From an uncultured Candidatus Saccharibacteria bacterium (GTDB lineage: Bacteria > Patescibacteriota > Dojkabacteria > SC72), in contig CAYXLF010000001.1 of the NCBI GenBank assembly GCA_964465815.1, forward strand, positions 1-33,344: 33,344 nt of DNA, written 5' to 3'. Below the pieces are notes generated by a model, which saw only the letters and a program-made list of their open reading frames with translations, did not search any database and had not been told where the DNA came from. Positions 16,586-33,344 of this stretch are shown here, piece by piece; positions within the stretch are counted from its first letter, which is position 1; the number at the start of each line of letters is the position of its first letter. The translations under genes and the position numbers were made by a program.

Positions 16586-16661
16586 CCTCGTCTCGGCTTC
16601 ACACAGAGTGAATATCGGATCCCGTGGGACCAAATATTGTCTGAGCACCGAGTTAAACGAG

Positions 16662-16880: not shown

Positions 16881-16892
16881 ATTATGGGTCAA
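16864..16892 (-). promoter_or_regulatory. Near-consensus sigma70-type promoter driving the minus-strand RNA locus
   Basis: On the minus strand: TTGACC (16892-16887), 17-nt spacer, TAAAAT (16869-16864). Confidence 0.6.
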
Positions 16893-16929
16893 TATCCTTT
16901 AATATATATATTTCTGATATCATTAATAT

Positions 16930-18088: not shown

Positions 18089-18881
18089 AGAAAATTTGTT
18101 TAGATATTGGAAGATATGGGTATTATGCCTAAGGGCTAGTATGAAGAAGAGCCGTATGTATAAGGGAGAGATTTTTGTAAGATTCTTAAGAACCATCTTT
18201 ATAGTTCTCACACAGCTACTCTTGCTTTCTGTGGTTTTTGGAGATCAAAAATATCTTGTGGGTTGGTCAAGGTCGGAGGCATATCTTGTTCTGGGAATAT
18301 GGAATCTTTTGAACTATTCGGGTTGGGCTTTGTTTGGGGTAAATCTCTCTATGTTAGAAAGATACGTAGTGGATGGAGATTTTGATTTTACACTTACAAA
18401 ACCAATCTCTTCTGCTTGGTTGACATCTTTTGGGGATTTCTCAATGTATAACTTAATATCTGCGCTTTCCGGAGTGATATTGATAGGGTACTATTTTGTT
18501 GTTAATTGGACCTGCATATTTTTAAATAATGTATTGCTATTTGTGTGCGCAATTGTTGTTGCTGCAATTATTTGGTATGCAATATATCTTTTCTTTGCAA
18601 GTTTTACACTTTCTATTCCAAGAAGTGGATTTATGGGTATTGCTAAGGAGATTCTAGGATTAACACGATACCCAACTAATATATACGCAAGTACATTACA
18701 GTTGATTTTCCATACGGTGATACCAATTGCTTTTGTTTCTACCGTTCCGGTTGAAATTTTAACTAATAGGGAGAGTCCTGTGCTTCTAATTATTGGTGCG
18801 GGAATAGCTTTTATTCTTTTAAGGTTTAGTTACTGGGTATGGAGCAAGAATATTAGGAAATTTGTAAGTGCTGGTGGATAA
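18069..18881 (+). CDS. ABC-2 family transporter permease, second subunit
   Basis: 270-aa ORF with about 6 TM helices and the motif DGDFDFTLTKPISSAWL. Overlaps the upstream paralogous permease by 20 nt. Confidence 0.65.
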   Translation: MQQKVFRENLFRYWKIWVLCLRASMKKSRMYKGEIFVRFLRTIFIVLTQLLLLSVVFGDQKYLVGWSRSEAYLVLGIWNLLNYSGWALFGVNLSMLERYVVDGDFDFTLTKPISSAWLTSFGDFSMYNLISALSGVILIGYYFVVNWTCIFLNNVLLFVCAIVVAAIIWYAIYLFFASFTLSIPRSGFMGIAKEILGLTRYPTNIYASTLQLIFHTVIPIAFVSTVPVEILTNRESPVLLIIGAGIAFILLRFSYWVWSKNIRKFVSAGG

Positions 18882-18938
18882 CATTATAGTTTTCTAAAAC
18901 ACAAGGAAATCTCAGATAGTGATTGATAAGATAAGGGC

Positions 18939-19943
18939 TTACTTCGAAGCGAAGCGTCTAGTTTGTTCCAAAACAATATTTAATGCTTCTTCTGCAGTCT
19001 TCGCTTTTATCGGGGATGCCGACGCATATGGATGTCCTCCTCCTCCAAGTGCTTGTGCTATATCACCAACTTCTTGATATCCCTTTGTACTTCTGAATGA
19101 CACGAACCATGTATCTGGGTTATCAAAATCCGGTTTTATGATAAATCCCCAATGCACACCTTGTATGAATCTGATGTATTTGTCTCTGAGGAATGCTTGT
19201 GCTTCATTGACCCCTGTTTTGCTTAGTCCTTCTTTCTCAATTTCATCAAGTGATATATACATATATGCCATATCCTTCTCAATAGTTAGCGTCTTCAAGT
19301 ATGAGATGATTGCAGGTGTAGCTTCTTTGGGGAATTTCGCAGCGTTGTATGACATTGCTTCCATATCCACATCGGAAACTTGTTTCGCGTCTGCAAATAC
19401 TCTTAGAGTATCTGGAGTAGTTGTTTCGTAGAGAAATCTCCCTGTATCAGCAACTATTCCGTATTGGGTTAATTCTGCAATATCTTTTGTTAATACAAAT
19501 TTCTTCCCTAGTATATTTTTGAAACTGGCAAATACCTGCTCTGTAGCAGAGCTTCTCTTTTCATTAATCACAAAACCATCTGCGTTATTCTCAACCTCAG
19601 TGTGATGATCGATGCAAACAATCTCCTTATTGGTATCTTTTAATTGATCTCGGGCAAAATCTAAGCATAGATCTATCTTCCCAGCATCTGTAACAATTAT
19701 TAAATCCTCTTCTCCTTCTCTTAATTCTTCTACTACGTGGATAGCTTTCATCCCTGGGAGATTTGCAGTAGGCATCTGTCTTGCCTTCATAACAACATTC
19801 TTTCTAGGATCTAGTTGCTCGATGAAAAGCTTGGTCATAATCATGCTACAGAAAGCATCAATATCTGGACTTCTGTGAGTAATGATCAAAATATTCTTAG
19901 ATTCTTCAATTAATTGCTTAAATTTCTTGTTGTACTGTAACAT
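18939..19943 (-). CDS. nrnA: DHH/DHHA1 phosphoesterase (NrnA-like nanoRNase / pAp phosphatase)
   Basis: 334-aa ORF with HRSPDIDAFCS, DHH (CIDHHTE) and the DHHA1 motif GGGGHPYASA. Confidence 0.85.
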   Translation of the reverse strand: MLQYNKKFKQLIEESKNILIITHRSPDIDAFCSMIMTKLFIEQLDPRKNVVMKARQMPTANLPGMKAIHVVEELREGEEDLIIVTDAGKIDLCLDFARDQLKDTNKEIVCIDHHTEVENNADGFVINEKRSSATEQVFASFKNILGKKFVLTKDIAELTQYGIVADTGRFLYETTTPDTLRVFADAKQVSDVDMEAMSYNAAKFPKEATPAIISYLKTLTIEKDMAYMYISLDEIEKEGLSKTGVNEAQAFLRDKYIRFIQGVHWGFIIKPDFDNPDTWFVSFRSTKGYQEVGDIAQALGGGGHPYASASPIKAKTAEEALNIVLEQTRRFASK

Positions 19944-19947
19944 AATC

Positions 19948-19976
19948 TTGATAATACCAGATGGGGAGAATATAAT
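19948..19976 (+). promoter_or_regulatory. Putative sigma70-type promoter for serS
   Basis: TTGATA (19948-19953), 17-nt spacer, TATAAT (19971-19976). Implies a leader of about 110 nt. Confidence 0.5.
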
Positions 19977-20093
19977 AAACCTAGAAATGAGAAGATATTT
20001 TTACAACTCATCATCATCTTCAGTCCTCTAGGAGGACGAATTAATTACTTTCAAAATTTTTGTTTTGTATATTTAAATTAAAGAAATAGACAG

Positions 20094-21365
20094 ATGATAG
20101 ATATTAAAAAAATAGTAGAAGATAAAGAAAAGGTTAAAGAAGGATTACTGAAAAGAATGAAACCCGAAGAGCTAGATCTGGATTGTATCGTTAATTTATA
20201 TAACCAGAGAAAAGAACTCCAAACAGAATATGATGTAAAGAGAGGAGAGCAGAATGCGTTTAATGAGAAGATGGCCAAGGTGGAGAAAGGTGGAGATGAA
20301 TTTAAGCAACTAGTTGCAGATTTGAAGATAAAGGCAGAAGAGGTAAAAGGTATTGAAGAGAGATTAAAGGCGGTAGAGGTAGAGCTTAAGGCAAAGATGG
20401 CTGTGTTCCCAAATATCCCAGATGAGGATATGCTTGCTGGGGAGAAGGAAAATAACCAAGTGATTAAAACTGTTGGAGAAAAACCTATATTTGATTTCAA
20501 GATTAAGGATCATGTTGAGTTAGGGAAGAATTTAGATATATTTGATTTAGAGACTGCTGCAAAGATATCTGGCGCAAATTTCCCAATGTACAAAGGTTTA
20601 GGTGCTAGGTTAGAATGGGCTTTGATCAATTTCTTCATATCTGAGCATAATAACTCGGGGTATGAGATGATTATTCCTCCTAATCTTGTGGTTGAGCAAT
20701 CTGCCTATGCTGCAGGTCAGCTTCCAAAGTTCAAAGAGGATGTGTATTGGGTGCAGGATGGATTGTGTTTAGTTCCTACTGCTGAAACTGTTTTGACAAA
20801 TATTTACAGAGATTCTGTGTTAGAAGAAAAAGATCTCCCTAAGAAATTTTTTGCATACACACCATGCTACAGAAGAGAAGCGGGCACATATCGTGCAAGT
20901 GAGAAAGGTTTGATCAGAATGCATCAGTTTAACAAAGTTGAGATGTACCAATTTACTGCGGATGATAAATCAACGGAAGCATTTGAGGAGTTAGTGGCTA
21001 AAGCTGAGGATTTGGTAAAGAAATTGGGTCTACACTATCGTGTGGTTAAACTTGCAGCCGGGGATTGTTCTGCGGTTGCAGCCAGAACCTATGACATTGA
21101 GGTATATATGCCAACGATGGATACATACTATGAAGTCAGTTCCGTATCTAATGCCACTGATTATCAGGCGAGAAGAGGAAATATGAGGTACAAACCTGCT
21201 GATGGTGGAAAACCAAGATTTATGCATACCCTTAATGGATCTGGATTGGCCACAAGTAGATTAATGGTTGCATTGGTAGAGGCATATCAGCAAGCAGATG
21301 GCTCCATTACAGTACCTGAGGTACTAAGGCCTTTTATGGGAGGGATAGATAAAATATCTAAGTAA
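20094..21365 (+). CDS. serS: Serine--tRNA ligase
   Basis: 423-aa ORF with an N-terminal coiled-coil arm. The class II core includes YRREAG, FNKVEM and GSGLATSR. Confidence 0.93.
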   Translation: MIDIKKIVEDKEKVKEGLLKRMKPEELDLDCIVNLYNQRKELQTEYDVKRGEQNAFNEKMAKVEKGGDEFKQLVADLKIKAEEVKGIEERLKAVEVELKAKMAVFPNIPDEDMLAGEKENNQVIKTVGEKPIFDFKIKDHVELGKNLDIFDLETAAKISGANFPMYKGLGARLEWALINFFISEHNNSGYEMIIPPNLVVEQSAYAAGQLPKFKEDVYWVQDGLCLVPTAETVLTNIYRDSVLEEKDLPKKFFAYTPCYRREAGTYRASEKGLIRMHQFNKVEMYQFTADDKSTEAFEELVAKAEDLVKKLGLHYRVVKLAAGDCSAVAARTYDIEVYMPTMDTYYEVSSVSNATDYQARRGNMRYKPADGGKPRFMHTLNGSGLATSRLMVALVEAYQQADGSITVPEVLRPFMGGIDKISK

Positions 21366-21369
21366 AAAA

Positions 21370-21915
21370 ATGAAGTTTTTCTTGGGATTCTGCCCTGACA
21401 AGGAAGCTAATGTAAAGATACGAAAAATATCTTCTGAACTTGGAAAAGTTTTTGACGATCTGGATATATCTGTGAGATGGAGTAATCCGGATAGCTACCA
21501 CATGGTTATGATTCCAATCAATGTGAGGCTTCCATTTGTTGAGATTCCTTTGTTAAAGCACCAATTACTTAAATATAGTTTCAACCCCTTCAAGGTTGTA
21601 TTTAATGCAAGCAAACTTGGTATCTCAAGAAAATACAAAGAATTGATCTATCTTGATGTCAAGGAAGGCGGAGAGGAGATGCGAAAGATGTACCTAGATT
21701 TGAGAAAGCTTTTAAGAAAAAGTGATGACACTAATTTCATACCGCATCTTGTATTGGGTAGGGTTAGTAAAGATTTAAGCAATCAGGAATATATGAATAT
21801 CTCTAGGGATCTTTCAAGAATTGCAAAGGGATTAAATATCTCTGAAGCTCACTTCTATGTTAATGCTTTAAGAATAATTAAAAGTACACCGGAAGGATTA
21901 GAGATCGTAGGTTAG
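21370..21915 (+). CDS. 2H phosphoesterase superfamily protein (LigT/ThpR-like), variant motifs
   Basis: 181-aa ORF with two H-x-V-x motifs (YHMVMIP and PHLVLGRV) at the spacing expected for the two HxT/S motifs of 2H enzymes. Confidence 0.5.
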   Translation: MKFFLGFCPDKEANVKIRKISSELGKVFDDLDISVRWSNPDSYHMVMIPINVRLPFVEIPLLKHQLLKYSFNPFKVVFNASKLGISRKYKELIYLDVKEGGEEMRKMYLDLRKLLRKSDDTNFIPHLVLGRVSKDLSNQEYMNISRDLSRIAKGLNISEAHFYVNALRIIKSTPEGLEIVG

Positions 21916-22755
21916 AATCTCTTCTAATGATGTGACCCATATCGCATTTGGATTTCTTCTAAACCATGTTTTTTGTCGCTTGATATATTTCATCGTATTC
22001 TTTACAATCGCATCTTTTACATCGTTAAGAGTATATTGTGGAACCCTTTCAAAATATGGTAAGAACTCCTGGTATCCGATGGATTGTAGTGCAGGGTATT
22101 GGTAATACCCATTCTCAAAAGCATCCCTTGCCTCTTTTTCTAACCCTTGCTCAAACATCTTTTCCACTCTCTGCATTACATTTTTTTCAAGTATTTCTTT
22201 CGGGAAATCTACGACAAAATACTTACATGGAAATACGGGTGTCATATTTCGTGTTGAGAGGGTGCCTTCTTTTTCAATTATTCTAATCAAACGTCTTGAA
22301 TTGCTTCGATCACTTTCATTTAGCAGATCAAGCACATCTGGCGATATTCTAGATTGAAGCTCTTGCAATGTCAGGGATGCAAGTGCCTCTCGTTGCCCTT
22401 TGTTATCTCTTTCTGAATCCAGATCATATCCAAATATAACAGAATCAATATATAGCCCTGTACCTCCAACAAGTATAATCTGTTTCTCTGCTGGAATGGT
22501 ATCTATTAGTGTAAGTACATCTTTTTGGTATTTATGGATATTGTACTCCTCTGTTACAGATACACAGCCATAGAGGTAGTGGGGGATGGTCTCCATCTCT
22601 GATTCAGATGGTCTCGCAGTACCAATAGAAAGCTCTTTGTAAATCTGTCTCGAATCGGCGTTTATAATAACGCCGTTAATGTTTCTTGCTAAATCAATAG
22701 CAATACTAGATTTCCCTGAAGCAGTAGGTCCGGCTATGACAATAATTGAACGCAT
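21898..22755 (-). CDS. miaA: tRNA dimethylallyltransferase MiaA
   Basis: 285-aa ORF with P-loop GPTASGKS, DSRQIYK and GGTGLY motifs. Confidence 0.92.
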   Translation of the reverse strand: MRSIIVIAGPTASGKSSIAIDLARNINGVIINADSRQIYKELSIGTARPSESEMETIPHYLYGCVSVTEEYNIHKYQKDVLTLIDTIPAEKQIILVGGTGLYIDSVIFGYDLDSERDNKGQREALASLTLQELQSRISPDVLDLLNESDRSNSRRLIRIIEKEGTLSTRNMTPVFPCKYFVVDFPKEILEKNVMQRVEKMFEQGLEKEARDAFENGYYQYPALQSIGYQEFLPYFERVPQYTLNDVKDAIVKNTMKYIKRQKTWFRRNPNAIWVTSLEEILTYDL

Positions 22756-22757
22756 GG

Positions 22758-23267
22758 CTATTTAATCAATTTATACACCAAGAAATATGTAAGCCACAAA
22801 GTAGCTAGAGAATCGCCAAGAGCAAAAAGAAGGGGAAGTATTAAAGATGGTGAAAGTACTGCAACTGCGACTAAAAGCAAAGTAATGGATAGCGATAACC
22901 TTATGGTATCATTTTTCATTTCTTTTTTGATCTCCAATATCGAGAAATCTTTTCTTTTGTAATTTTGCATGAAATATCCTACAGCGGTACCAATGTTCAG
23001 TGTAACAACAAAAATTGTAACAAATGGTACAACTTTAAATATATCCGTAACTTCTACCTTAAATGCTAAATTTGCTATTAAGAAAGTAATACATACGAGG
23101 AAACCAGATATCAAGATTGAGAATAGAGAGACAAGTGCGAATCTCTTATTTTTTGTAAATATCCAAACCAGTGTGGGTATGGCTAAGAGTATTATCAAAA
23201 GAAGGATTCCAAGGAGAATCTTCTCATAGGAGGTCCAGCTATTCCAAAGATTTGTAAATATTTCCAT
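22758..23267 (-). CDS. Small polytopic membrane protein (possible SecF-like remnant)
   Basis: 169-aa ORF with 4-5 TM helices, lying 2 nt from both flanking genes. Confidence 0.45.
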   Translation of the reverse strand: MEIFTNLWNSWTSYEKILLGILLLIILLAIPTLVWIFTKNKRFALVSLFSILISGFLVCITFLIANLAFKVEVTDIFKVVPFVTIFVVTLNIGTAVGYFMQNYKRKDFSILEIKKEMKNDTIRLSLSITLLLVAVAVLSPSLILPLLFALGDSLATLWLTYFLVYKLIK

Positions 23268-23269
23268 AG

Positions 23270-24478
23270 TTATATTTTCTTTATCTTATTTAAATACCAT
23301 CCAGAAATGATCAAACATATTTTCGAGAGTGCGGTTAATAACAGAACGTTTTGTGCTAATTGACTTAAAGTGCCACTTGTTAAGAATGTTGTTGAAGCAA
23401 GCAGTATCAGAAGGAAAAGCTCAATGTAGAAATGTGAATCTTTGTTCTCACTTAGTACATAGGTTGTTACAACTAGTAATATCATCTCTACCGCCAAGTA
23501 GTTAAGATCAACGGGAACGTTAAATATCTTTAGAAATGCGATATACAGTGATGCTGAGAGAGTCGTGGCGATTAAGACCTTCGCGGCTCTTTGTTTGTCT
23601 ATACTTTTTGAGATGACAAGGTACGTATACATGATAATAATGCTTGCAGCTATCGCAATCGCGATTCCGATATAATCTACTGCGGGAGTATCAATGGTGA
23701 TTTCTGCCTCGGATTCAATAGTACAGTCGGTATTTATTAACCCAGAATTGTAAAGCAGTGACATAACTTTAATCTGTTGTATATCTTCAGTGGAGATGGG
23801 AATCGCAAATATCTGTTGGGTGGTATCGACCAAATATGGTGTAACAAACCCATCTAGATTTACGCCGATATATTGACCATTGTACTTCTCTAGAAATGTG
23901 TTAAAAGCTTCGGTTTTATTCGCCCAGAGCTTAAAGATTGCAAAGTAGGATTGCTCTCCGCTATTAGTTTTTAATTTTGTTATATAAACATTTCTGAAAT
24001 CACTTCTATCCCATTCTGTAGCATCATAGTTTGTTGCATAAATATATGCATATTGATCACCACTATTCTCAAAATTTACATCAGTTTTCCTTGTCACTAT
24101 CTGTGCTGAGAAACGATTAGCTAAAAGTTCTCTGACCAGTGATTGATCTTTTGCAGACGTTATAGTTATGTGAATCTTGTTATCGATTATGCTGGAAGAA
24201 ATCTCTTCAACTCCAAAACCTTCAAGTCTTTTGAAGAAAATATCATTAATATCTTCTAATGATTGTACGGATGTATCTTCCGCGGAGATAATATACTCTT
24301 TCGACCAATATGTCCCATTTTTTAAAGTTAAATTGTAGTTAACCTTCGAGAAATATTTTTCAGTCAAAGGGAGCGCAATGAATATTGCAGCTAAAAAAAG
24401 AGATGTGACAATTATTATTAATGTGTAGTTTAACAAGGGCTTGAGATTCAAGCTCAGTTTTAGTTTTGGTAATTTCAT
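23270..24478 (-). CDS. Membrane protein with a large extracytoplasmic domain (SecD-like topology)
   Basis: 402-aa ORF: one N-terminal TM, a soluble domain of about 250 aa, then about 5 C-terminal TM helices. The segment VPVDLNYLAVEMILLVVTTYVLSEN weakly resembles the conserved SecD/F TM region. Confidence 0.4.
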   Translation of the reverse strand: MKLPKLKLSLNLKPLLNYTLIIIVTSLFLAAIFIALPLTEKYFSKVNYNLTLKNGTYWSKEYIISAEDTSVQSLEDINDIFFKRLEGFGVEEISSSIIDNKIHITITSAKDQSLVRELLANRFSAQIVTRKTDVNFENSGDQYAYIYATNYDATEWDRSDFRNVYITKLKTNSGEQSYFAIFKLWANKTEAFNTFLEKYNGQYIGVNLDGFVTPYLVDTTQQIFAIPISTEDIQQIKVMSLLYNSGLINTDCTIESEAEITIDTPAVDYIGIAIAIAASIIIMYTYLVISKSIDKQRAAKVLIATTLSASLYIAFLKIFNVPVDLNYLAVEMILLVVTTYVLSENKDSHFYIELFLLILLASTTFLTSGTLSQLAQNVLLLTALSKICLIISGWYLNKIKKI

Positions 24479-24481
24479 CTG

Positions 24482-25054
24482 TTAAAGTAAGTCAGATATC
24501 TGTCCGAATATGATCATCTTATCTTTTTCTAAGATGTTCATCAAGAATGGTTCTTTCTTTTTTCTAGCAAAATCAAAGTCTTCTTTTGTGATAGCGCTAA
24601 ATCTAATCTCTCGTTTCTGATCTTTTTCTAATTCACTAACCGCTTTGGAGAGTTCTCGAATGTTCATATTACCAATGAAGAGAAAATCAACATCGGTAGG
24701 ATTATCATATCTATTTTTAATGAAACTCTCAGTTAGTACTACAACTTGTACCCCTTCAATACCCTCTACAACTTTGAGTATTGCTTTGCCAATATTTGAC
24801 TCTTTGTAGAACATGCCTCTAAGTTCCTGCAGTATAGGACATTTTTTGTTTAGACGATATACCAATTTGTTTCCATCTTTCTTAGAGTAGAGTAGCCCTG
24901 CATCTTGAAGATTTAGCAGCTCTCTACGAACAGCATTAATCTCTTCATCAAGAATTCTAACTAAACCTCGGACATGGAAAGATGCGTTAAGATCGAGCAT
25001 ATATTGCTCTAGGATTCTGATCCTAACTTTTGATATAAAAAGATTTTTTAGCAT
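24482..25054 (-). CDS. Winged-helix (ArsR-like) regulator fused to a nucleotidyltransferase-like C-terminal domain
   Basis: 190-aa ORF. The N-terminus (RIRILEQ ... VRGLVRILDEEINAVRRELLNLQDAGLL) fits a wHTH. The C-terminus carries a PTDVDFLFIG NTase-like motif. Confidence 0.6.
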   Translation of the reverse strand: MLKNLFISKVRIRILEQYMLDLNASFHVRGLVRILDEEINAVRRELLNLQDAGLLYSKKDGNKLVYRLNKKCPILQELRGMFYKESNIGKAILKVVEGIEGVQVVVLTESFIKNRYDNPTDVDFLFIGNMNIRELSKAVSELEKDQKREIRFSAITKEDFDFARKKKEPFLMNILEKDKMIIFGQISDLL

Positions 25055-25075
25055 AGTTCCCCAACCTGCTTAATA

Positions 25076-26377
25076 TTATTGCTCAATTATATCAAATTTC
25101 CCATCAGATGTACCTAACATTTCGACCCATATTCTTCCTCTATTAAAAGTCACCTCATTGCCTTGGCTATCGTAGTATGTGGTTCTATCTGTTCTAGAAG
25201 TCTTCTTCCACGTACCTGTGGTGATCTTCCCATCTATGAGGAATGTCGCATCCCCTTGCCCGATAGTAGTAATAATTAGGTGACCTTTGTCGTCTCCCGA
25301 TTGAACCATCGAGACTTCTTGTACTACGATGTTCTTGGCATGAACTTGTGTCTTTGTCTCTTGGTCTATATCGGCTTGTCCACCAACCATTCTTAGGTAT
25401 GAGTTTGTATCAGGATCATATGTCCATATTACATTGTATAACCCACTATTGATTAGTCTCTCGTGGAATGTAAGCTCTACTTTGGTCTTTTCGCCTCTGT
25501 TTGAAATATCTGCATCTGCTTTGAATTTCCATTTCTCAAAACTTGAAGGGAATCCATCCCAATTCACTTTTTCTGCATATTCCCAAGCGTAGGTAATGGA
25601 GCTGTACTCATTGTGTGGTGCAACTCTCCTGCCATCATTCCATCTCCAAGCACCAATTGTGGCAATATCTTTTGCACCATAGTTATCAAGGTTCCCACAT
25701 GCATTCGTTCTAGGATCCTCTGAGGATGCACAACCATCATGGATTATCAATGAATCATATTCTAATGCCCACTCTAAGAAATAGTTTCGAATACTTCGTA
25801 TAGGGCCAACCTTCTCAGGTGCCTGACTCCAATATATTGCCATTAACCTAGTAATACCTCCCTCAGCATTGGCTTCAATCACAATATCTGCACTGTTAAG
25901 GCTAGATAATGGTCTCGCATCGGCATGGTTATTAGTCATAACAGAAACTGCTCTCCTGACCAGCATTTTATCCATTTCAGATTTGGTAAAGAGTAATCCA
26001 TTTAATGGGCTTTCCTCTGTTCTAGGCTCTGTTGGTTTTGATAGCAAGGGTAAAATATGTTTGAAAGTTCCAGTAGGAGCATCCGAAGTTATATAGTCTT
26101 GATTGAAAGAAAAAATATTTTCCAAAGGTTGTGGTTTTACTTTGTATATGCCGAAGTAATAGAAACCTGCAATACCAAGTAATGTAAGTACTGCGACTAT
26201 TGGAAATATGAAGTTCTTGATATTAAGTTTCTTTTTAGGGATATTCAACTCAACCTTCTCATCTTGAATATCTTCTTTTACGACTTCCTTGGTTTCTGGA
26301 ATTTGAGGCTCCGCAACAGGATTTGTATCTTTAATCTCGGACTTCCCAGTATCTGTGATATTGATCTCTTTAGCCAT
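25076..26377 (-). CDS. DUF3048 (YerB-like) membrane-anchored protein
   Basis: Core reads NNHADARPLSSLNSADIVIEANAEGGITRLMAIYW ... GPIRSIRNYF. Start moved to MAKEINIT (26377) because the 40-aa upstream extension overlaps the divergent gene and is implausible. Confidence 0.75.
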   Translation of the reverse strand: MAKEINITDTGKSEIKDTNPVAEPQIPETKEVVKEDIQDEKVELNIPKKKLNIKNFIFPIVAVLTLLGIAGFYYFGIYKVKPQPLENIFSFNQDYITSDAPTGTFKHILPLLSKPTEPRTEESPLNGLLFTKSEMDKMLVRRAVSVMTNNHADARPLSSLNSADIVIEANAEGGITRLMAIYWSQAPEKVGPIRSIRNYFLEWALEYDSLIIHDGCASSEDPRTNACGNLDNYGAKDIATIGAWRWNDGRRVAPHNEYSSITYAWEYAEKVNWDGFPSSFEKWKFKADADISNRGEKTKVELTFHERLINSGLYNVIWTYDPDTNSYLRMVGGQADIDQETKTQVHAKNIVVQEVSMVQSGDDKGHLIITTIGQGDATFLIDGKITTGTWKKTSRTDRTTYYDSQGNEVTFNRGRIWVEMLGTSDGKFDIIEQ

Positions 26378-26456
26378 GGCAGTTTTGTGTAGATATATAT
26401 CCAATATACTAACATATTGTGGTAGTATTAATAAATAATATTTTATGGAATAAAAT

Positions 26457-27485
26457 ATGATAAAGAAGATCGTATGGTTCCTAATATTACCTCTCATAGT
26501 AGGCGTTAGTGTCTACCTGATTTTTTTCAAGCAGAAGCCAACTACCACAGACGATACCACCAGTGATGATACTCAAACTTCACAAGAGTCTGACACAGAT
26601 ACTACAAACGAAGAAGAGGAAGAAACGGATACCTCAACTACTGGTACTGAGGAAGAGGAGGAGGCCCAAACCATTACTGGTTTCTCAACCGAATCTCAGA
26701 CAGTTGGTGCAACCTCTTCATCTAAGTACACAATTGAAGAGGTCAGCAATACCTCTCATGCAGACTACCATGAATTCGTCTTTACGCTTTCCTCTACTGG
26801 TACGGATGATCCCAATGTAATTGCAGAATACAAGAGTAGCTTAGGTGTGATTAGATTGGATTTTAATCAGATAGAAAAAGATAACAGTGGAATAGGGTAT
26901 CAGAAAGAGGTGAGTATAAATAAGGAGGGTATATCTAGACTGTATCACAATGTATCATCTGATCAGACAGAGGAACTGTATGATATCGGTGTAACCAAAG
27001 AGACGGCATTCAAGCTAATATCAGAAAAAGTAGGAGATAATTGGGAGATAACGATATATGTACAATATCCAGGAGAATCTTCTAGCACAGTAGACACGGG
27101 AAGTACCAGTTATAGTACTCAACCACAATCCATCACAGGCGTAGATGCCTCAAAAGGCGCAACAGTTAGCTCATATACATATGGTATAAGTGGAGGAGTT
27201 TTAAAATTTGTTTGGAATGTAAGTAGCACTGATACTAATCCAATTCCAAATGTCAATGCAGCATATGATTCTGAAAATCATTTGGTTGTAACATTCACAA
27301 GCCTGAAAACAGATAAGGTATATCTAGCTGTAGATGGCATCTCTTTGCCAGGAAGCTTAGCAATGCAAACTGAGAAACCAGGAGAATCAACCATATATAC
27401 AATATCGGGATTCTCATCACAAGTGGAATATAAATTAAGTGCGGGTACAAGCCCAAATCAAGTAATTTTAGAAATTGAATTATGA
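26457..27485 (+). CDS. Membrane-anchored/secreted protein with an acidic T/E/D-rich linker and two related beta-rich domains
   Basis: 342-aa ORF with an N-terminal TM followed by a linker of about 50 aa (TTDDTTSDDTQTSQESDTDTTNEEEEETD). Two domains share the pattern F.F.LSSTGTDDPNVIAEY / KFVWNVSSTDTNPIPNVNAAY. Confidence 0.6.
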   Translation: MIKKIVWFLILPLIVGVSVYLIFFKQKPTTTDDTTSDDTQTSQESDTDTTNEEEEETDTSTTGTEEEEEAQTITGFSTESQTVGATSSSKYTIEEVSNTSHADYHEFVFTLSSTGTDDPNVIAEYKSSLGVIRLDFNQIEKDNSGIGYQKEVSINKEGISRLYHNVSSDQTEELYDIGVTKETAFKLISEKVGDNWEITIYVQYPGESSSTVDTGSTSYSTQPQSITGVDASKGATVSSYTYGISGGVLKFVWNVSSTDTNPIPNVNAAYDSENHLVVTFTSLKTDKVYLAVDGISLPGSLAMQTEKPGESTIYTISGFSSQVEYKLSAGTSPNQVILEIEL

Positions 27486-27573
27486 CGCTTCGCTTCAATG
27501 TGAGGCGGTATTATATAAATGACTATTAGGGTTTTTAATAATTTTTTTAACTTACTATACACACTTCTAGCAT

Positions 27574-27987
27574 ATGATTCTTGCTCTAGTATTTGATTTT
27601 AATGGTGTGCTCTTAAATAAAAATACCCGTCAAATGGATCTGGATATGTTGGAACTTCTAAAAGAACTTCATGATTTAGATATTACTATCCATTTGTTCT
27701 CAAATACATCCAAAGAAGCTATATATTTGCTCGATTCAAAATTTAATTTCCTAAAATATTTCAAAAACATTATTCTTGTTGAGGATACAGGTTGTAGTAA
27801 ACCCTCAGACGAATCATTCAAAAATCTTTTGAAGACAATACAAACGGAGCCAGAGGATATTGTATACATAGATGATAATAGAAACAATATCAGGCAGGCT
27901 AACAAATTCGGAATGCAAGGAGTACTTTTCATAAATGAGGCAAAACTAAGAGCTAAATTAATTGAAATTGCAGAAAATGATAACTAG
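27574..27987 (+). CDS. Small HAD-superfamily hydrolase
   Basis: 137-aa ORF. Motif I is FDFNGVL (DxN rather than DxD), motif II is FSNTS, and motifs III/IV are KP ... IDDNRNNI. Confidence 0.6.
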   Translation: MILALVFDFNGVLLNKNTRQMDLDMLELLKELHDLDITIHLFSNTSKEAIYLLDSKFNFLKYFKNIILVEDTGCSKPSDESFKNLLKTIQTEPEDIVYIDDNRNNIRQANKFGMQGVLFINEAKLRAKLIEIAENDN

Positions 27988-28558
27988 AGAAAGATGCAAT
28001 AAATTGTTAGAGAAATATATAACTACTCCATGGCTTAAATTCCATATGCGGGAGAGTGATCTAATAATGCAAGCAGTAGCAAAGAGATTAGGAGAAGATC
28101 CTGAGAAATGGGGATTATCTGGATTGTTACATGACCTAGATTTTGATTATGTTAATAAAGATCCACAATGGCATGTTATTAAATTTGATGAAATACTTGA
28201 AAAAGAAGGACTTAAGATAGGTATAGATATCGATGAGGATGTGTATCATGCCATCCGTGCTCACTATGAAGAACATCCAGACATTAAAGAAAAACGAGAA
28301 AATAATTTAGATTATGCGCTCTCAGCGTCTGAAAATCTTTCAGGATTTTTAGTAGCATGCGCTTTGGTACAACCAGATAAAAAAATAGCGAGTGTAGAAG
28401 TAGATAGCGTTACTAAAAAACTTAAGAAAAAAGATTTTGCAAAAGCTGTTAGAAGAGATCTGATACAAGATATAGAGAAAACAGGAATTTCCCTCGAAGA
28501 ATTTATACAGATAGCTTTAGATGTGATGAAGGCTAATGCATCAGAATTAGGTTTGTAG
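27962..28558 (+). CDS. HD-domain hydrolase (COG2316-like)
   Basis: 198-aa ORF with H ... LLHDLDFD ... H ... residues. The start may instead be M6 at 27977. Confidence 0.65.
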   Translation: MKLQKMITRERCNKLLEKYITTPWLKFHMRESDLIMQAVAKRLGEDPEKWGLSGLLHDLDFDYVNKDPQWHVIKFDEILEKEGLKIGIDIDEDVYHAIRAHYEEHPDIKEKRENNLDYALSASENLSGFLVACALVQPDKKIASVEVDSVTKKLKKKDFAKAVRRDLIQDIEKTGISLEEFIQIALDVMKANASELGL

Positions 28559-28575
28559 TAAAATATTCTCAATAA

Positions 28576-28652
28576 CGGGGCGTAGTTCAGATGGCTAGAG
28601 CGCTTGCATGGGGTGCAAGAGGTCGCACGTTCAAGTCGTGTCGCCCCGACCA
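28576..28652 (+). tRNA. tRNA-Pro (anticodon GGG), CCA encoded
   Basis: Manual cloverleaf. Acceptor CGGGGCG/CGCCCCG has the C1-G72 pair typical of bacterial tRNA-Pro. D arm is GTTC-AGATGGCTA-GAGC. Anticodon arm is CTTGC-ATGGGGT-GCAAG. T arm is GCACG-TTCAAGT-CGTGT, followed by ACCA. Confidence 0.9.
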
Positions 28653-28694
28653 GTTTTTGTAGAAATTGATTTTTTAAGTTTCTTTAGGAACAAG

Positions 28695-29222
28695 GTGAAT
28701 AAACATGATGCTGATAAGCTAATGCATGAGAAAGTTGTTATCCAAGAATTTCTCGAGTTGTATAACGAAGTAAACAACGTAAATATAGTCTTCCTTCGGC
28801 ATGGAGATCCCCTCAAAAAAGAACCAGATGCAGTATGCTCAGAAAATATGTATATAGAGATGGTGGATATGTTCTCGCGTAACTCTGAAGCTGCTGAAAA
28901 ATGGTCTCAGATAAGGCATGAGAAAAAAGAAAGTCCCTTAGATCTGGTACTGAATACAAATGAACGTATTCAAGAACTTATATATTTGAAATCTCAGAAG
29001 CTTGATAATGGTCATTATGATGGAGTATTACCAGGAAGTAAGATTGTATTGCTTTGTAATGTAGAAAGTTTTGCAGTATCCGATCCTGAAGTTGCTTCGT
29101 TTATTGATTATTTCTACTCATTTTCTAAAGATCATATCTTCGAGAAGTACTTTGATGAAGTTTGGCTTATATGGAAACCTTCATTTTCTACTGTGAAGCA
29201 CATCAAAAAGATAGAGATTTGA
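28695..29222 (+). CDS. Hypothetical protein (about 175 aa)
   Basis: The track ORF starts at 28608, inside tRNA-Pro. More plausible starts are GTG 28695 (AGGAA 5 nt upstream) or ATG 28722. No confident domain was recognised. Confidence 0.5.
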   Translation: MNKHDADKLMHEKVVIQEFLELYNEVNNVNIVFLRHGDPLKKEPDAVCSENMYIEMVDMFSRNSEAAEKWSQIRHEKKESPLDLVLNTNERIQELIYLKSQKLDNGHYDGVLPGSKIVLLCNVESFAVSDPEVASFIDYFYSFSKDHIFEKYFDEVWLIWKPSFSTVKHIKKIEI

Positions 29223-29242
29223 GATGATGCCACTTTGATATG

Positions 29243-30271
29243 TTAATCTAGTAGGTCTGTTATTGATTTCCTCTGATTAATCCTACTTATTGTATCTGCA
29301 AAGTAGTTTGCAATAGATACCTCTTTAAACCATGGGGATTTTTCTAAGAATTCTTTTGAATGATACGTACTATCTGTACCAATAACCATATCTAAAAATC
29401 CTTTTTCATATGCTTCTTGAAATCTTTCCCATGCAGGACCATTGAAGAGAGCGTGTGTGCAAACAGCTATTACTTTCTTTGCTCCCATATTTTTTGTCTC
29501 TTCCAAAGCTTTTATCAATGTGCCTCCTGTGCAGATCATATCATCAACAATGTATACATTCTTGTCTTTTACATCTCCCAATATTGATATCTTATCTACA
29601 GTATTTGCTTTGCAATAATTTCTAACTTTATAGGTAAATGCAATATCTGTTCGAAGGGATTGTGCATAGTGATTAGCTCGTTTTGCACCACCTAGATCAG
29701 TTGGCATTATGACTGTATTCTCATTATCCTTTATTATTCTTCTTAATGTCGGGATTATGACATAGCTTCCCAAGAGATTATCAATCTTTGCTCTCCTAAA
29801 GAATCCTTGTATTGCAGAGTTATGAAGATCAATTGTAATTATATGGTCAACAGATCCATCGCCTTCTAATTCATATGCTATTCTTGCAGCTGTAATTCCT
29901 TCTCTTCCAGATTGTTTGTCCTGTCTTGCATATGGGAAAGAGGGTAGTACTGTGGTTATTCTTTCTGCATCACATCTTCTACAGGTGTCAACCATTGTAT
30001 ACAGTGCTCGCAAGTTTTGATCTGTACATCTTCCATCTGTGTGATTTTCACAGTCTTGGATTATGAACACGTCTTTACCTCTGATACTTTCGTTTATGAC
30101 AGTTTTTAATTCTGTACTTGCAAAGTGAACCTCCTCTGAATCTATTAAATGTACTTCATTGCCATATTCTTTTCTAAGGGATTTAACTATTTTCTTTGCG
30201 AAATTTAAGCCAGAATTACATGCGAGTACTGATAGGGGGCCCTTAGAGGTTGGAGACATAAAGAGGTGCAT
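29243..30271 (-). CDS. prs: Ribose-phosphate pyrophosphokinase (PRPP synthetase)
   Basis: 342-aa ORF with DLHNSAIQGFF and the PRPP-binding loop VDDMICTGGTL. The start may be M5 at 30259. Confidence 0.9.
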   Translation of the reverse strand: MHLFMSPTSKGPLSVLACNSGLNFAKKIVKSLRKEYGNEVHLIDSEEVHFASTELKTVINESIRGKDVFIIQDCENHTDGRCTDQNLRALYTMVDTCRRCDAERITTVLPSFPYARQDKQSGREGITAARIAYELEGDGSVDHIITIDLHNSAIQGFFRRAKIDNLLGSYVIIPTLRRIIKDNENTVIMPTDLGGAKRANHYAQSLRTDIAFTYKVRNYCKANTVDKISILGDVKDKNVYIVDDMICTGGTLIKALEETKNMGAKKVIAVCTHALFNGPAWERFQEAYEKGFLDMVIGTDSTYHSKEFLEKSPWFKEVSIANYFADTISRINQRKSITDLLD

Positions 30272-30318
30272 TAAATTAACATATATAGTGTACTACGAAT
30301 ATGTGAAATTAAGAAATA

Positions 30319-30327
30319 TGGTATAAT
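30319..30327 (+). promoter_or_regulatory. Extended -10 promoter element (TGgTATAAT) with no ORF downstream
   Basis: TGgTATAAT at 30319-30327. The predicted start near 30334 leads into the structured non-coding island. Confidence 0.5.
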
Positions 30328-30333
30328 ACGGAT

Positions 30334-30563
30334 AGGAAACAACGCCTTACACTAAGCGAAAAGTGATTTACAACCGGCCATCTGGGTCGGTTTTTTGTTA
30401 AACCGACCATGCTCATGTACCGGAGGATCACCGGTACATAAGCTAGAGTATTGGAAGGTGTCTGATCAACACCCAAGATATTCTGAGCAACTTCTAAGGG
30501 CAGTATGCAATTGCTACTGTGCGGGAGAAGATCGGTTAACGGTCGTATCCCGCTTCCCTTAGA
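30334..30563 (+). ncRNA. Candidate structured RNA island (unknown family)
   Basis: GC-richer than the flanks and has no ORF. Elements: terminator hairpin 30372-30392, competing hairpin 30385-30408, perfect 9-bp hairpin 30415-30439, hairpin 30457-30473, and a three-way junction 30493-30563. G.U pairs fit only the plus strand. Confidence 0.45.
30372..30399 (+). terminator. Intrinsic terminator-like hairpin inside the RNA island
   Basis: AACCGGCC (30372-30379) pairs with GGTCGGTT (30385-30392). This gives 8 bp including one G.U, with a 5-nt loop, followed by TTTTGTT. Confidence 0.55.
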
Positions 30564-30573
30564 TGAGGAGTAG

Positions 30574-30582
30574 TGATATAAT
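30574..30582 (+). promoter_or_regulatory. Extended -10 promoter element upstream of the 30607 ORF
   Basis: TGaTATAAT ends 24 nt before the ATG, implying a very short leader with no Shine-Dalgarno. Confidence 0.45.
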
Positions 30583-30606
30583 CGACCTCGTTTCGTCTTA
30601 CAAAAT

Positions 30607-31023
30607 ATGAGTAACTATACAATAACAGAAGGTCTTGTTTGTGAATTAGACCGTATGGAAAATTTAACAGAATCTGAATTCAGAGCTACTGCGGTAGTGT
30701 CCCTTTTTGGTATGGAAGAAACTAATTTCCAAATCTGTGTTGATGAAGAAGATTTTGACTCAGACAATGTAGTAAATGCTTTGAGAAGTGGATGTATCGA
30801 GAATACATGTTTTAATGTTTATCCAATATATAATCCTAATGATCTTATATTGGTATCGGATTATTCCAAATCAGAGATAGAGAAAAGTAAGAAAAAGATA
30901 GAAAATATTTATATGATTTCAAGCGAGGATTGCCCCAATGAGCATATTGTTATGCTTACGCTTAAGGATCTACGAGCAGATGGACGTGTAATGTTGGTTG
31001 CTCAGCACGTCGTTGAAAGATAA
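30607..31023 (+). CDS. Hypothetical acidic protein (138 aa)
   Basis: Intact ORF with no recognisable motif. Confidence 0.5.
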   Translation: MSNYTITEGLVCELDRMENLTESEFRATAVVSLFGMEETNFQICVDEEDFDSDNVVNALRSGCIENTCFNVYPIYNPNDLILVSDYSKSEIEKSKKKIENIYMISSEDCPNEHIVMLTLKDLRADGRVMLVAQHVVER

Positions 31024-31081
31024 TTGACCTTCCCCCAAGTATTTGTCACAATATACCTATTAATATTTCACTAATATAGGA

Positions 31082-31288
31082 ATGAAAGTATCAATAGATC
31101 ATACAAAGTGTGCCGGATGTGGTTCTTGTGTAGCAATATGTCCAGAAGTATTTGAAATGAAGGATGATGGTACTGTAGATGTTAAAGCGGAATACCAAGG
31201 TGTAGATATTACAGATGCAGTCTTGGTTGAAAAGGTAAAGCAAGCTGCAATGGCATGTCCAGCTACGGCAATTGTTATGGAGGAATAA
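31082..31288 (+). CDS. Small 4Fe-4S ferredoxin (single-cluster type)
   Basis: 68-aa ORF with CAGCGSCVAICP plus a distal ACP cysteine. Confidence 0.85.
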   Translation: MKVSIDHTKCAGCGSCVAICPEVFEMKDDGTVDVKAEYQGVDITDAVLVEKVKQAAMACPATAIVMEE

Positions 31289-31289
31289 C

Positions 31290-31709
31290 ATGGATGATTG
31301 TATTTTTTGCAAAATTGTAAAAGGAGAGATTCCTTGTTTTAAAGTGTATGAAGACGACAACTATTTGGCGTTCTTAGATTTATCAAACTTCACAGAAGGG
31401 CATACATTAGTAGTACCTAAGAAACATTACAGATTTGTATGGGATGTGGATGATATCGAAGGATACTCTAATGTGGTTAAGAAAATATCAAATCATTATA
31501 GAAATAATCTGGGGTTTGCATATGTTGATACTCTTACCTTTGGAAGGATGATTCCACATGCACATGTACATTTGGTTCCTCATAATGCAGACTCTGGAGA
31601 TTGGGAAAAAGCGCTGGAGAAAATAGGGGAGCTACAGGGGGATTCAACAAGGAGATTATCGAAGGAAAAAGGGGAGGAAATAGCTAATAAATTTAAAATG
31701 CAAGGCTAA
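31290..31709 (+). CDS. HIT-family (histidine triad) hydrolase
   Basis: N-terminus reads CIFCKIV and the histidine triad is HAHVHLVPH. Start placed at MDDCIFCK (31290), which has GGAGGA 5 nt upstream. The track ORF starts at 31272. Confidence 0.88.
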   Translation: MDDCIFCKIVKGEIPCFKVYEDDNYLAFLDLSNFTEGHTLVVPKKHYRFVWDVDDIEGYSNVVKKISNHYRNNLGFAYVDTLTFGRMIPHAHVHLVPHNADSGDWEKALEKIGELQGDSTRRLSKEKGEEIANKFKMQG

Positions 31710-32083
31710 GCCCCTTTGTAAAGCTTTTGTAATTTTTTATCAAATGTTATCAATCTGGCATTATTCTCTTTTGCAAGAAAAAGTATGATTGAATCTATGG
31801 CTGTAAATGTGTTTGGAAGGTTTCCTGCGAAGTCTATATATCTTATGAGATTACTATCATCCAGAGTAGGTATTTCATCTGCTGCTTTCAATGTTGCTTT
31901 TATTGTGCACTCCCTTGCCCGTTTATTTCTTGTGTTACTCATTAGCTCGGCAATTACCATCGCAGGTATTAATATTTTAGAACTCTTTAAATTCTTCGCA
32001 ATATCTACTGCCAAGAGATGATTTATATCCTCTTCGTTGAGCAACGAACAAATGAAATTTGTATCTAAAAGAGACTTCTCCAT
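31706..32083 (-). CDS. vapC: PIN-domain toxin (VapC-like)
   Basis: Reads MEKSLLDTNFI ... AELM ... DSIILFLAKENNARLITFDKKL, with acidic residues at PIN positions. Start placed at M16 of the track ORF. Confidence 0.8.
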   Translation of the reverse strand: MEKSLLDTNFICSLLNEEDINHLLAVDIAKNLKSSKILIPAMVIAELMSNTRNKRARECTIKATLKAADEIPTLDDSNLIRYIDFAGNLPNTFTAIDSIILFLAKENNARLITFDKKLQKLYKGA

Positions 32084-32361
32084 TCTTTGTCTCTTTGTTC
32101 TCTTATATGTTTTGCACTGTTCTTGCATTTTGGATCAGAATATTTATAGTCTTTGACTTTCTCAAAAAAACTCTGCTTTTTCCCTACTTTTGCAAGATTT
32201 TTTTCTTTAGTGTTAGTGTAATCCTTAAAACTTGTTAATACCGCGATAGGATCTTTCATTTTTTTGTATCCTAGATAAACAATTCCTCCATCTTTAACAA
32301 AGGACATTGCTTCGGAAGGCTTCTTGTAAAATTCGGTTGTGCTGTAAGTCTTGCTTTTCAT
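32065..32361 (-). CDS. Antitoxin, Phd/YefM-like N-terminus
   Basis: 98-aa ORF directly upstream of vapC, overlapping it by 19 nt. The N-terminus TYSTTEFYKKPSEAMSFVKDGGIVYLGYKK ... PIAVLTSFKDY fits the Phd/YefM pattern. Confidence 0.65.
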   Translation of the reverse strand: MKSKTYSTTEFYKKPSEAMSFVKDGGIVYLGYKKMKDPIAVLTSFKDYTNTKEKNLAKVGKKQSFFEKVKDYKYSDPKCKNSAKHIREQRDKEWRSLF

Positions 32362-32362
32362 A

Positions 32363-32399
32363 CTACTAATATTTTAGTAGCTTTTTAGTAGCGTGTCAA
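32363..32399 (-). promoter_or_regulatory. Toxin-antitoxin promoter with an embedded operator-like palindrome
   Basis: On the minus strand: TTGACA (32399-32394), 17-nt spacer, TAAAAT (32376-32371), with the ATG only 9 nt after the -10. The palindrome CTACTAA-TATT-TTAGTAG spans 32363-32380. A third TTAGTAG half-site lies at 32385-32391. Confidence 0.6.
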
Positions 32400-32442
32400 A
32401 ATGAAAAAATGAGCTAGAAATTCTGATATCAAACAGCGATGA

Positions 32443-33288
32443 TTATTCTTCCTGGAAGAACGTGAGAATATCGGTCATATATTCCTTGTCTACATCAAAA
32501 TGTGCTTTGTCTTCAATCTCTACAAGTTCAACGTCCTTCCCAAGTTTTGCAAGGTATTGAACAAAATTCCTTGAATTAACGATTCCAATATTCACATCGT
32601 CTGTTCCATGCCATATCTTTATATCGATATCCATGATTTTTGCAACTTCCGATTGATTCCATTCATAAGTTCTTGTTGTTGGAGCAAGTAGAGCAATTTT
32701 CTCAATATTGTCTGAATATTTTTGTACGAAATGCATTGTAGGTAGACCTCCCATACTAAAACCAATGAGATATATCTTCTCGGAGGTTTGGTATCTCTCT
32801 TCTATCCACTCTTGTAGATTTAGCATATCTGTAATGGATGCAGTATTCCCCCAGTTCTCATCATGCTCATTTGATGCTGCAAAGATGAAATTATACTGGG
32901 TAAAATAGATGCCATATTCTTGGAGATCCATCATAAATGGATCTAACATATCTGAGATCACTCTGGTATTAGAACCGTGGCTGTACAGAATTATGGAAGG
33001 AGGATTGTTCTCGTCTATTTTTGTAGGTGCAACTACATATGCAGTTTGCCCTTCCATTGCTTGGTTAATTTCTTCATAATGTGGACCTTCTGGGATCGTT
33101 TCTTCTACAGTTACATCTTCTTGTGTATTAGCATCCGCATCATTTGTATTTTCCTGAGTTTGCGAATTACTCTGTTTCTGAGCAACAAGGATATCATAGC
33201 AGAGGTAAATAGGTAGGGCCAAAAGGAGTAGGAATACTATGAAAAGGATTATATCTAACAGGTTAATCTTCTTTTTAGTATCATTCAT
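32443..33288 (-). CDS. Membrane-anchored alpha/beta hydrolase (esterase/lipase-like)
   Basis: 281-aa ORF with an N-terminal TM, nucleophile elbow GFSMGG, and distal D and H residues (DKAHFD). Confidence 0.7.
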   Translation of the reverse strand: MNDTKKKINLLDIILFIVFLLLLALPIYLCYDILVAQKQSNSQTQENTNDADANTQEDVTVEETIPEGPHYEEINQAMEGQTAYVVAPTKIDENNPPSIILYSHGSNTRVISDMLDPFMMDLQEYGIYFTQYNFIFAASNEHDENWGNTASITDMLNLQEWIEERYQTSEKIYLIGFSMGGLPTMHFVQKYSDNIEKIALLAPTTRTYEWNQSEVAKIMDIDIKIWHGTDDVNIGIVNSRNFVQYLAKLGKDVELVEIEDKAHFDVDKEYMTDILTFFQEE

Positions 33289-33331
33289 AATATGAAAATT
33301 ATAGACATTTTTTTTAACTCTGTCTATTAGA

Positions 33332-33340
33332 TGGTATAAT
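33332..33340 (+). promoter_or_regulatory. Extended -10 promoter element pointing out of the window
   Basis: TGgTATAAT at the right edge. Its target gene is not in the window. Confidence 0.35.
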
Positions 33341-33344
33341 CTTA

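Follow-up and report, generated by a model that had tools for sequence, protein, structure and literature searches.

A candidate cis-regulatory RNA absent from Rfam: a proposed conditional intrinsic terminator or orphan riboswitch candidate in uncultured small-genome bacteria

Among known riboswitches, those that respond to cations (for example Mg2+, Mn2+, Na+ and Li+) regulate transporters and membrane proteins, and riboswitches can also gate noncoding RNAs (ncRNAs), as the B12 riboswitch does with EutX/Rli55. ANTAR targets have two small hairpins in tandem, each with a conserved hexaloop, and a terminator that overlaps the second. The HMP-PP riboswitch (thiS motif) is a terminator-embedded aptamer that was first exposed by a conserved-terminator criterion (PMC6478431). 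Here we compare with these systems a promoter-and-hairpin module at positions 30319-30408 of a 33,344-nucleotide (nt) stretch of DNA from an uncultured bacterium (the whole stretch is called the window), and we propose it as a candidate cis-regulatory RNA that Rfam does not contain, either a conditional intrinsic terminator or an orphan riboswitch candidate.

The first-pass annotation of this DNA had described an extended -10 element, an 8-base-pair (bp) hairpin followed by a T-run and an overlapping 9-bp hairpin, and a direct reading of the sequence finds each of them in place. The elements of the module are the following:

30319-30327, plus strand: extended -10 promoter, TGGTATAAT, by direct sequence reading, with no good -35 element
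30334-30399, plus strand: predicted short transcript, which is the 5' module, about 63-66 nt, ending within the T-run
30339-30349, plus strand: conserved single-stranded 5' block of 11 nt, ACAACGCCTTA here, consensus A-Y-AACGCCTT-G (alignments A2 and A4)
30350-30365, plus strand: P1 hairpin, CACT paired with AGTG around the 8-nt loop AAGCGAAA
30366-30380, plus strand: conserved linker and terminator 5' half, ATTTACAACCGGCCA
30372-30392, plus strand: intrinsic-terminator hairpin, AACCGGCC (30372-30379) with GGTCGGTT (30385-30392), 8 bp, 5-nt loop ATCTG
30391-30399, plus strand: T-run (U-tract), TTTTTTGTT
30385-30408, plus strand: competing 9-bp hairpin, GGTCGGTTT (30385-30393) perfectly complementary to AAACCGACC (30400-30408), loop TTTGTT

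The terminator stem has five G-C pairs among its 8 bp and includes the pair G30377.U30387; it shows the features by which intrinsic terminators are recognized on sequence, namely a stem rich in G-C pairs and no shorter than 5 bp, a loop of few nucleotides and a U-run directly after the stem, and a consensus terminator scan recovers it independently. In 20 kb of the window (13345-33344), no other 8-bp stem is directly followed by six T without a break. Terminator-like sites in the same 20 kb number 16 loose matches against a shuffle expectation of 10.6, barely above it; canonical intrinsic terminators are rare in this genome, most genes here probably ending without a hairpin terminator. The motif TGNTATAAT occurs five times in the AT-rich window against 3.3 expected, which is not above chance, so that the -10 element draws its significance from conservation across homologues and not from match counts. 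The transcript start near 30334 is placed from the position of this element, and the 3' end is likewise predicted to fall in the T-run. ViennaRNA assigns -11.3 kcal/mol to the terminator hairpin and -13.1 kcal/mol to the competing hairpin, one strand of which is the terminator 3' half plus three U, and predicts 97% occupancy of the competitor at equilibrium once both strands exist.

Among the systems named above, the HMP-PP riboswitch shares with the module a length of about 50-65 nt, a position directly after the promoter, an unusually conserved intrinsic terminator and a small upstream P1 (PMC6478431), as well as conserved nucleotides that overlap the lower terminator stem, by which the ON and OFF states would be mutually exclusive (PMC6478431). 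Unlike that riboswitch, the module has neither an Rfam match nor thiS or other thiamin genes downstream, conserves the terminator stem and its flanks around a variable loop rather than a conserved loop, and lacks a covariation-supported alternative P1 or pseudoknot; the missing Rfam match, the missing thiS and thiamin genes and the variable terminator loop led us to reject membership in the HMP-PP class. The Rfam search that the first-pass annotation had proposed was run with cmscan on Rfam 15 at permissive E-values (up to 10), over both strands of 29900-31000 of the window and 11 homologous loci, and returned no match overlapping the module; thiS/HMP-PP, nhaA-I, DUF1646, preQ1, fluoride, 6S, SRP, tmRNA and RNase P are among the families unmatched. 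An ARAGORN scan for tRNA and tmRNA found nothing at the locus, and a literature search for riboswitches or structured RNAs in bacteria of the candidate phyla radiation found nothing relevant.

There is also a likeness to trp-type attenuators, which use 1:2, 2:3 and 3:4 pairings: the module has three segments (30372-79, 30385-93 and 30400-08), the middle one able to pair with either neighbour, and two copies (L054 and L164) have a fourth segment that can pair with segment 3 into another terminator-like hairpin. Unlike those attenuators, the module has no leader peptide, the window and 59 of 61 copies have no fourth segment, and the U-run follows segment 2 and not segment 4. Several other candidates were dropped on architecture. 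An ANTAR-type target is contradicted by the single hairpin upstream of the terminator, with its variable loop and no dual hexaloops; a type III toxin-antitoxin RNA (on architecture alone) by the absence of tandem repeats and the unrelated downstream proteins. An integron attC site and a retron ncRNA were likewise rejected on architecture alone; a reverse transcriptase follows the RNA at one locus only (L123), as an insertion.

Homologues were gathered by BLAST of relatives, by pattern (regex) scans of genome and metagenome collections, and then with the covariance model (CM) R1, which was built from 39 homologues and scores 30334-30399 of the window at 69.5 bits. The initial BLAST returned a copy in the same assembly (on contig C60) and partial matches in seven other genomes, the 30319-30408 stretch being the best-conserved part; altogether there are about 60 distinct copies of the module in uncultured small-genome bacteria, one or two per genome, and the 61 regex rows include two that are spurious (L058 and one L121 row). 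Much of the column invariance is imposed by the search pattern, and we report separately the columns that it does not impose: A7 (in the 5' block), A45, C58, A59 and G71 are each invariant in 39 of 39 sequences of alignment A2, and C57 in 38 of 39. The 5' block persists in CM-derived matches, and those from the second order keep the same conserved blocks. Upstream of the conserved block, at a distance of 5-30 nt, a -10-like hexamer is present in 54 of the 61 regex rows, with a TG extension in 33 of those; the distance from -10 to block has its mode at 13 nt (12-15 nt in 28 rows), and the element is of the type TGnTAxxxT. The linker has the consensus A-A/T-TTA-N-AACCGGCCA, its last eight paired bases being the terminator 5' half, and is followed by a loop that varies in length and sequence, then GG-Y-CGGTT, then the T-run. 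Most CM-derived matches, in which this run is not forced by a pattern, carry 5-7 T (L149 has four), and the conserved strands and the terminator stem are near-invariant across a GC content of 0.31-0.53.

All four closing pairs of P1 covary: pairing holds in each of the 156 cells, four pair types occur at every position, 0 of 500 shuffles equal the covariation score found, and all slid controls collapse. In length the P1 loop varies between about 4 nt and more than 50 nt, and its sequence is not conserved. Judged from these alignments, perfect covariation in P1 beside near-invariant flanks and a near-invariant terminator stem is unlike ordinary terminators, and a covarying P1 with near-invariant flanks, of which the 3' block continues into the terminator 5' half, is a riboswitch-like layout. 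Within the terminator stem, the 30377/30387 pair alternates between G.U and G-C (23 versus 14 of 39), a stem-base A-U becomes G-C in L149, and a C-G becomes U.G in L171, the pairing being preserved in each. Such wobble substitutions keep the pairing on the plus strand only, and the RNA is therefore assigned to the plus strand, in agreement with the earlier remark that the G.U pair of the window works on that strand alone.

Downstream of the module the copies fall into two kinds of context. In the window, a spacer of 335 nt separates prs (29243-30271, minus strand) from a gene for a protein of 138 amino acids (aa); this spacer contains or adjoins the following features:

30412-30565, plus strand: downstream structured domain, with a GATC-loop hairpin, a second GATC-loop hairpin and a three-way junction
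30574-30582, plus strand: second extended -10 element, TGATATAAT, ahead of the 138-aa gene and kept in C60 and L113
30607-31023, plus strand: 138-aa gene, which travels with the RNA in this genus and is followed by a ferredoxin gene and then a HIT gene

The stretch 30328-30606 folds well beyond shuffles (z -5.25), and promoter scans find no promoter-like site on the plus strand from 30328 to 30573. Because the conserved 30412-30565 domain has no promoter of its own, it would be made by read-through through the terminator. From the promoter to 30607 there is a single open reading frame (ORF), of 55 aa with a TTG start (30395-30562), for which we rejected a coding role: it is not kept in relatives, and in L003 the reading meets a stop after 13 codons. 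The Dojkabacteria copies, at GC 0.31-0.37, share this arrangement, with the module, a hairpin that has GATC in its loop, additional hairpins and a three-way junction over about 200-235 nt in total. The genes that come next encode a 67-68-aa ferredoxin with NUDIX and HIT proteins, an Elp3-like radical-SAM/GNAT protein or an NAD-dependent epimerase, and in the genus of the window the 138-aa protein, which has no significant Pfam match. Between the RNA and the Elp3-like gene, strains that are nearly identical carry an inserted gene for an IS200-like transposase (Y1_Tnp, L021) or for a reverse transcriptase (RVT_1, L123), and the region 3' of the RNA resembles a hot spot for insertions. Since these insertions, and in L104 a convergent gene, follow directly on the three-way junction, the RNA ends there and is a unit of its own.

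The second group of copies comes from genomes of 0.6-1.9 Mb (locus GC 0.34-0.53) whose deposited taxon labels are doubtful; several of the contigs were recovered from groundwater, in the 0.1-0.2 µm filter fractions. In these copies no structured domain accompanies the module, and the distance from the U-run to a start codon is 1-45 nt, which leaves no room for another promoter. The 5' module can therefore be separated from the downstream domain and has the broader distribution of the two. The genes so placed encode UPF0182 in three genomes (L136, L168 and L172), a P-type cation ATPase in L170, a 206-aa membrane protein in L036, L156 and L054 (with only 39% identity between the L036 and L054 proteins) and, in several cases, small proteins without a Pfam family, and SPFH/Band 7 proteins occur further downstream in L164 and L165. 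The downstream gene is co-oriented with the module in nearly all resolved contexts. A common downstream protein family was rejected, since an all-against-all BLASTP of ten downstream proteins gives only the expected orthologue pairs and Pfam is mostly empty.

Starting from the elements, their conservation and covariation and their gene contexts, all of which are observed, we infer termination itself, switching and an effector, and we give about an even chance to the reading that 30319-30408 is the promoter and 5' control module of a conditional terminator, in the form of a riboswitch-like or protein-dependent attenuator. The distance to the promoter, the unpaired conserved core, the conserved terminator, the promoterless ORFs and the need for read-through together argue for a terminator-based cis-regulator whose sensor overlaps its terminator. 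Polymerase would start near 30334 and transcribe the 11-nt block, P1 and the linker that runs into the terminator 5' half. By default the terminator would form and an RNA of about 63 nt would be released; an effector that held the block, the linker and the 5' half in another conformation would keep the lower terminator stem from closing, and read-through would follow, its product being the structured RNA of about 230 nt in Dojkabacteria and an mRNA in the other lineages. The only alternative pairing that folding suggests (RNAalifold on truncated transcripts) would join GCC at 30344-46 with GGC at 30376-78, closing over P1. As for the effector, our guess leans somewhat towards a small ligand or ion, with an RNA-binding protein as a substantial though lesser possibility; the 5' block and the terminator 5' half share the word A-Y-AAC...CC, which would suit a dimeric RNA-binding protein.

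The first-pass annotation had offered a small terminated RNA or a regulated point of termination, and the promoterless downstream domain together with the ORFs 1-45 nt after the U-run fit the second of these better and make the first less likely. It had also called the promoter an orphan, a description that we replace: the promoter is predicted to drive the RNA of about 230 nt. Finally, it had described the terminator and the competing hairpin as mutually exclusive. An equivalent pairing is found in 20 of 42 distinct copies, each well above shuffles; at a variable pair position most copies have U-A, L047 has C-G, and L062 and L117, the near relatives of L047, have U-A and U.G. The independent lineage L054 also has C-G there and builds an 11-bp version on that form; several one-sided changes give G.U pairs. 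Comparative analysis therefore supports the competing hairpin as real and covarying. Its 3' strand, however, lies after the U-run and would be untranscribed when the decision is made (30393-30399), so that it is not an antiterminator of this terminator. It would form only after read-through, capturing the terminator 3' half and freeing the conserved 5' strands, and it probably locks read-through transcripts in the ON conformation. In the two copies, of one sub-lineage, with a second terminator-like hairpin from segment 3 and a fourth segment (L054, 5967-6000; L164, 319-350), the layout suggests that pairing of segments 2 and 3 would truly antiterminate at terminator 2; as an explanation of the window, a second terminator coupled to the competitor was rejected, as it is found in 2 of 61 copies only and not in the window. 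Other Dojkabacteria copies have a conserved GTTCTTTA stretch in place of the competitor.

Several observations weigh against a conditional terminator. Both the start of the transcript and its termination are predictions from sequence. No covariation-supported antiterminator was found: the GCC/GGC pairing fits every sequence, but its columns are invariant, and an antiterminator helix of TTG (30347-49) with CAA (30371-73) was rejected, being contradicted by A.C and G.A combinations. The L167 copy has a poor U-run of only TTT. Dojkabacteria downstream genes appear to carry -10 elements of their own (in L004 and L056 an analogous -10-like element directly precedes the gene), and L104 has a convergent gene as its next neighbour. 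The downstream genes are also heterogeneous, with no single metabolite regulon evident among them.

Some of these points would suit a stand-alone, trans-acting small RNA (sRNA) of about 63 nt with a constitutive terminator, the unpaired blocks of which bind target mRNAs or a protein while read-through is incidental. Its own promoter, the good terminator, a conserved unpaired 5' block of 11 nt that resembles a seed, the one or two copies per genome and a patchy distribution such as accessory sRNAs have would all be expected of it, as would the -10 elements of the Dojkabacteria downstream genes and the convergent neighbour in L104. We nevertheless consider this unlikely, because ORFs without a promoter of their own begin, co-oriented, 1-45 nt after the U-run in many independent contexts, because both the competing strand, which covaries with the terminator 3' half, and the 30412-30565 domain are conserved, and because the sequence of the terminator stem is itself conserved, which an sRNA terminator does not need. 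It is quite improbable, in our judgement, that the module is instead a purely structural 5' domain of a 230-nt ncRNA, in which the hairpin and U-run are architectural or protein-binding, do not terminate, and overlap as alternative mature folds. The near-invariance of 30360-30560 between the two copies in the assembly speaks for such a domain, as does the equilibrium preference for the competitor (97%), by which the mature long RNA would lack the terminator hairpin, and polymerase may respond weakly to terminators in a genome where canonical ones are rare. Yet the module also occurs directly ahead of ORFs with no downstream domain, nearly all copies keep a run of 5-7 U after the stem (L149 has four and L167 three), and a GC-rich stem of 8 bp with a short loop and U6 has the geometry of a textbook intrinsic terminator.

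The earlier annotation had also considered transcription of the region from the minus strand only, as a leader of prs, and we find it barely credible that the region is a minus-strand prs leader or promoter, or a set of chance inverted repeats in an AT-rich spacer. That prs is the immediate neighbour on the minus strand, that a weak promoter-like site lies on this strand at 30307-30278 and that the minus strand also folds well (z -5.46) are what such a leader would predict. But the RNA adjoins prs in this genome only, the congener G006 keeps prs and its upstream region while lacking the RNA, and the G.U pairs and wobble substitutions would become A.C mismatches; chance repeats are ruled out by the P1 covariation and by about 60 homologues. 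The annotation had further pointed to conservation upstream of orthologues of the 138-aa gene and of prs, and of these two associations the first holds within the genus.

Returning to the conditional terminator, the identity of the downstream genes bears on what it might sense. Like cation riboswitches, the module would use an intrinsic-terminator platform, and its genes in the second lineage encode mostly membrane proteins (P-type cation ATPase, SPFH/Band 7, UPF0182), those that recur being UPF0182 (3 genomes), SPFH (2) and the 206-aa membrane protein (3) in a set that is heterogeneous overall and has many members without Pfam families. This membrane-centred gene set hints at an ion or envelope signal. 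Against that hint, the module has no sequence or structure match to the cation-riboswitch families of Rfam, and the Dojkabacteria contexts (ferredoxin-NUDIX-HIT, Elp3 and epimerase) do not fit an ion regulon. The Dojkabacteria copies resemble the B12-gated EutX/Rli55 in placing terminator-based control at the 5' end of an ncRNA and not an mRNA; the module is, however, of a different aptamer class. More tentatively, we raise the possibility of an undescribed riboswitch class, largely confined to ultra-small uncultured bacteria (Dojkabacteria and the second group). Its aptamer, some 45 nt long and in part lying within its own terminator, would respond to an ion or to a small signalling molecule of relevance to the cell envelope, and would gate the mRNAs of membrane proteins and the Dojkabacteria ncRNA. 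If the effector is a small molecule or ion, the module would represent a new class with a terminator-embedded aptamer. Bacteria of the candidate phyla radiation have tiny genomes with few recognizable regulators, and next to nothing is known of how they control expression; the cassette would be among the first lineage-typical cis-regulators described for them, and would offer an entry point to unknown proteins such as UPF0182 and to the signal that the cells monitor.

The extent of the RNA can be judged from the syntenic copy that the assembly holds on contig C60 (L009; genome G000, 481-2216), which corresponds to 30360-33288 of the window. Its order is RNA, 139-aa gene, ferredoxin, HIT and esterase, and the contig end cuts it at the equivalent of 30360. 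Between the two copies the RNA is identical at 199 of 201 positions over 30360-30560 (99%), and this conservation stops near 30565. In the ferredoxin gene 24 of 69 third codon positions differ (35%) and only 2 other positions do; the 138-aa gene is 74% identical, with a protein identity of 67%, the HIT gene is 59% identical, and the proteins of the two loci are at most 67% identical. The comparison suggests either that the RNA is under very strong purifying selection or that it was recently exchanged between the two loci; under both readings it would behave as a functional unit from about 30334 to about 30565, or about 230 nt. The C60 copy may be either a true paralogous locus or part of a co-binned related strain. 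In the downstream domain, two substitutions in the second hairpin of L113 yield G.U pairs. The palindrome GATC is presented in two successive loops of the domain (30426-30429 and 30464-30467 of the window), the first of which keeps it across Dojkabacteria; the paired GATC loops could allow loop-loop kissing or dimerisation.

The relatives of the window are Candidatus Dojkabacteria and include two complete genomes of 0.72-0.73 Mb (G009 and G029). Within the family the module occurs in 13 of 40 genomes; across the class it occurs in 15 of 151, which belong to two families, and none was reported from five congeners of 90-99% completeness (G001, G002, G005, G006 and G008). A phylum sample of 151 genomes gave 2 strong matches, and in two other orders 3 of 139 and 13 of 87 genomes carry the module; weak CM matches of about 30 bits in other members of the phylum are not counted as copies. 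Such a patchy distribution rules out an essential housekeeping RNA (SRP, RNase P or tmRNA), and a phage origin was rejected since a pattern scan of IMG/VR gave 0 matches and several copies have ordinary chromosomal neighbours. In the congener G006 (L151, contig C4, 1390-1500, against 30272-31081 of the window), prs and the ferredoxin gene adjoin across a spacer of about 130 nt that holds neither the RNA nor the 138-aa gene, the break falling inside the -10 element (TGGTAT). From this alignment the RNA and the 138-aa gene appear to behave as an inserted or deleted cassette with its left boundary within TGGTAT. The patchy distribution and the G006 locus point to gain, loss or transfer, and the cassette has apparently been exchanged between lineages.

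Some minor observations concern the surroundings of individual copies. The ferredoxin promoter common to G006 and the window consists of TTGACC, 17 nt and a TG-extended -10 element. Between the HIT and esterase genes of the window, the minus strand of 31706-32361 holds two small overlapping genes (140 aa and 98 aa) that resemble a toxin-antitoxin pair and are missing in C60; since HIT abuts esterase there, the two genes represent an insertion or deletion. At L140 (genome G212, contig C51, 1182-1440) the intact RNA is preceded, at a distance of about 320 nt, by a second, degenerate copy, with a module that has lost its 5' block and promoter and a three-way-junction domain that is kept, as in a tandem duplication in decay. 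In the non-Dojkabacteria locus L109 (1-760), a 16S rRNA gene ends about 700 nt before the copy, and the 1.7 kb of the locus on the downstream side contains no 23S gene, which suggests an unlinked rRNA operon; the gene could serve to place that organism taxonomically. Among the public sequencing runs listed as containing the sequence, none is of RNA, and all are DNA metagenomes from bioreactor, sludge or wastewater samples.

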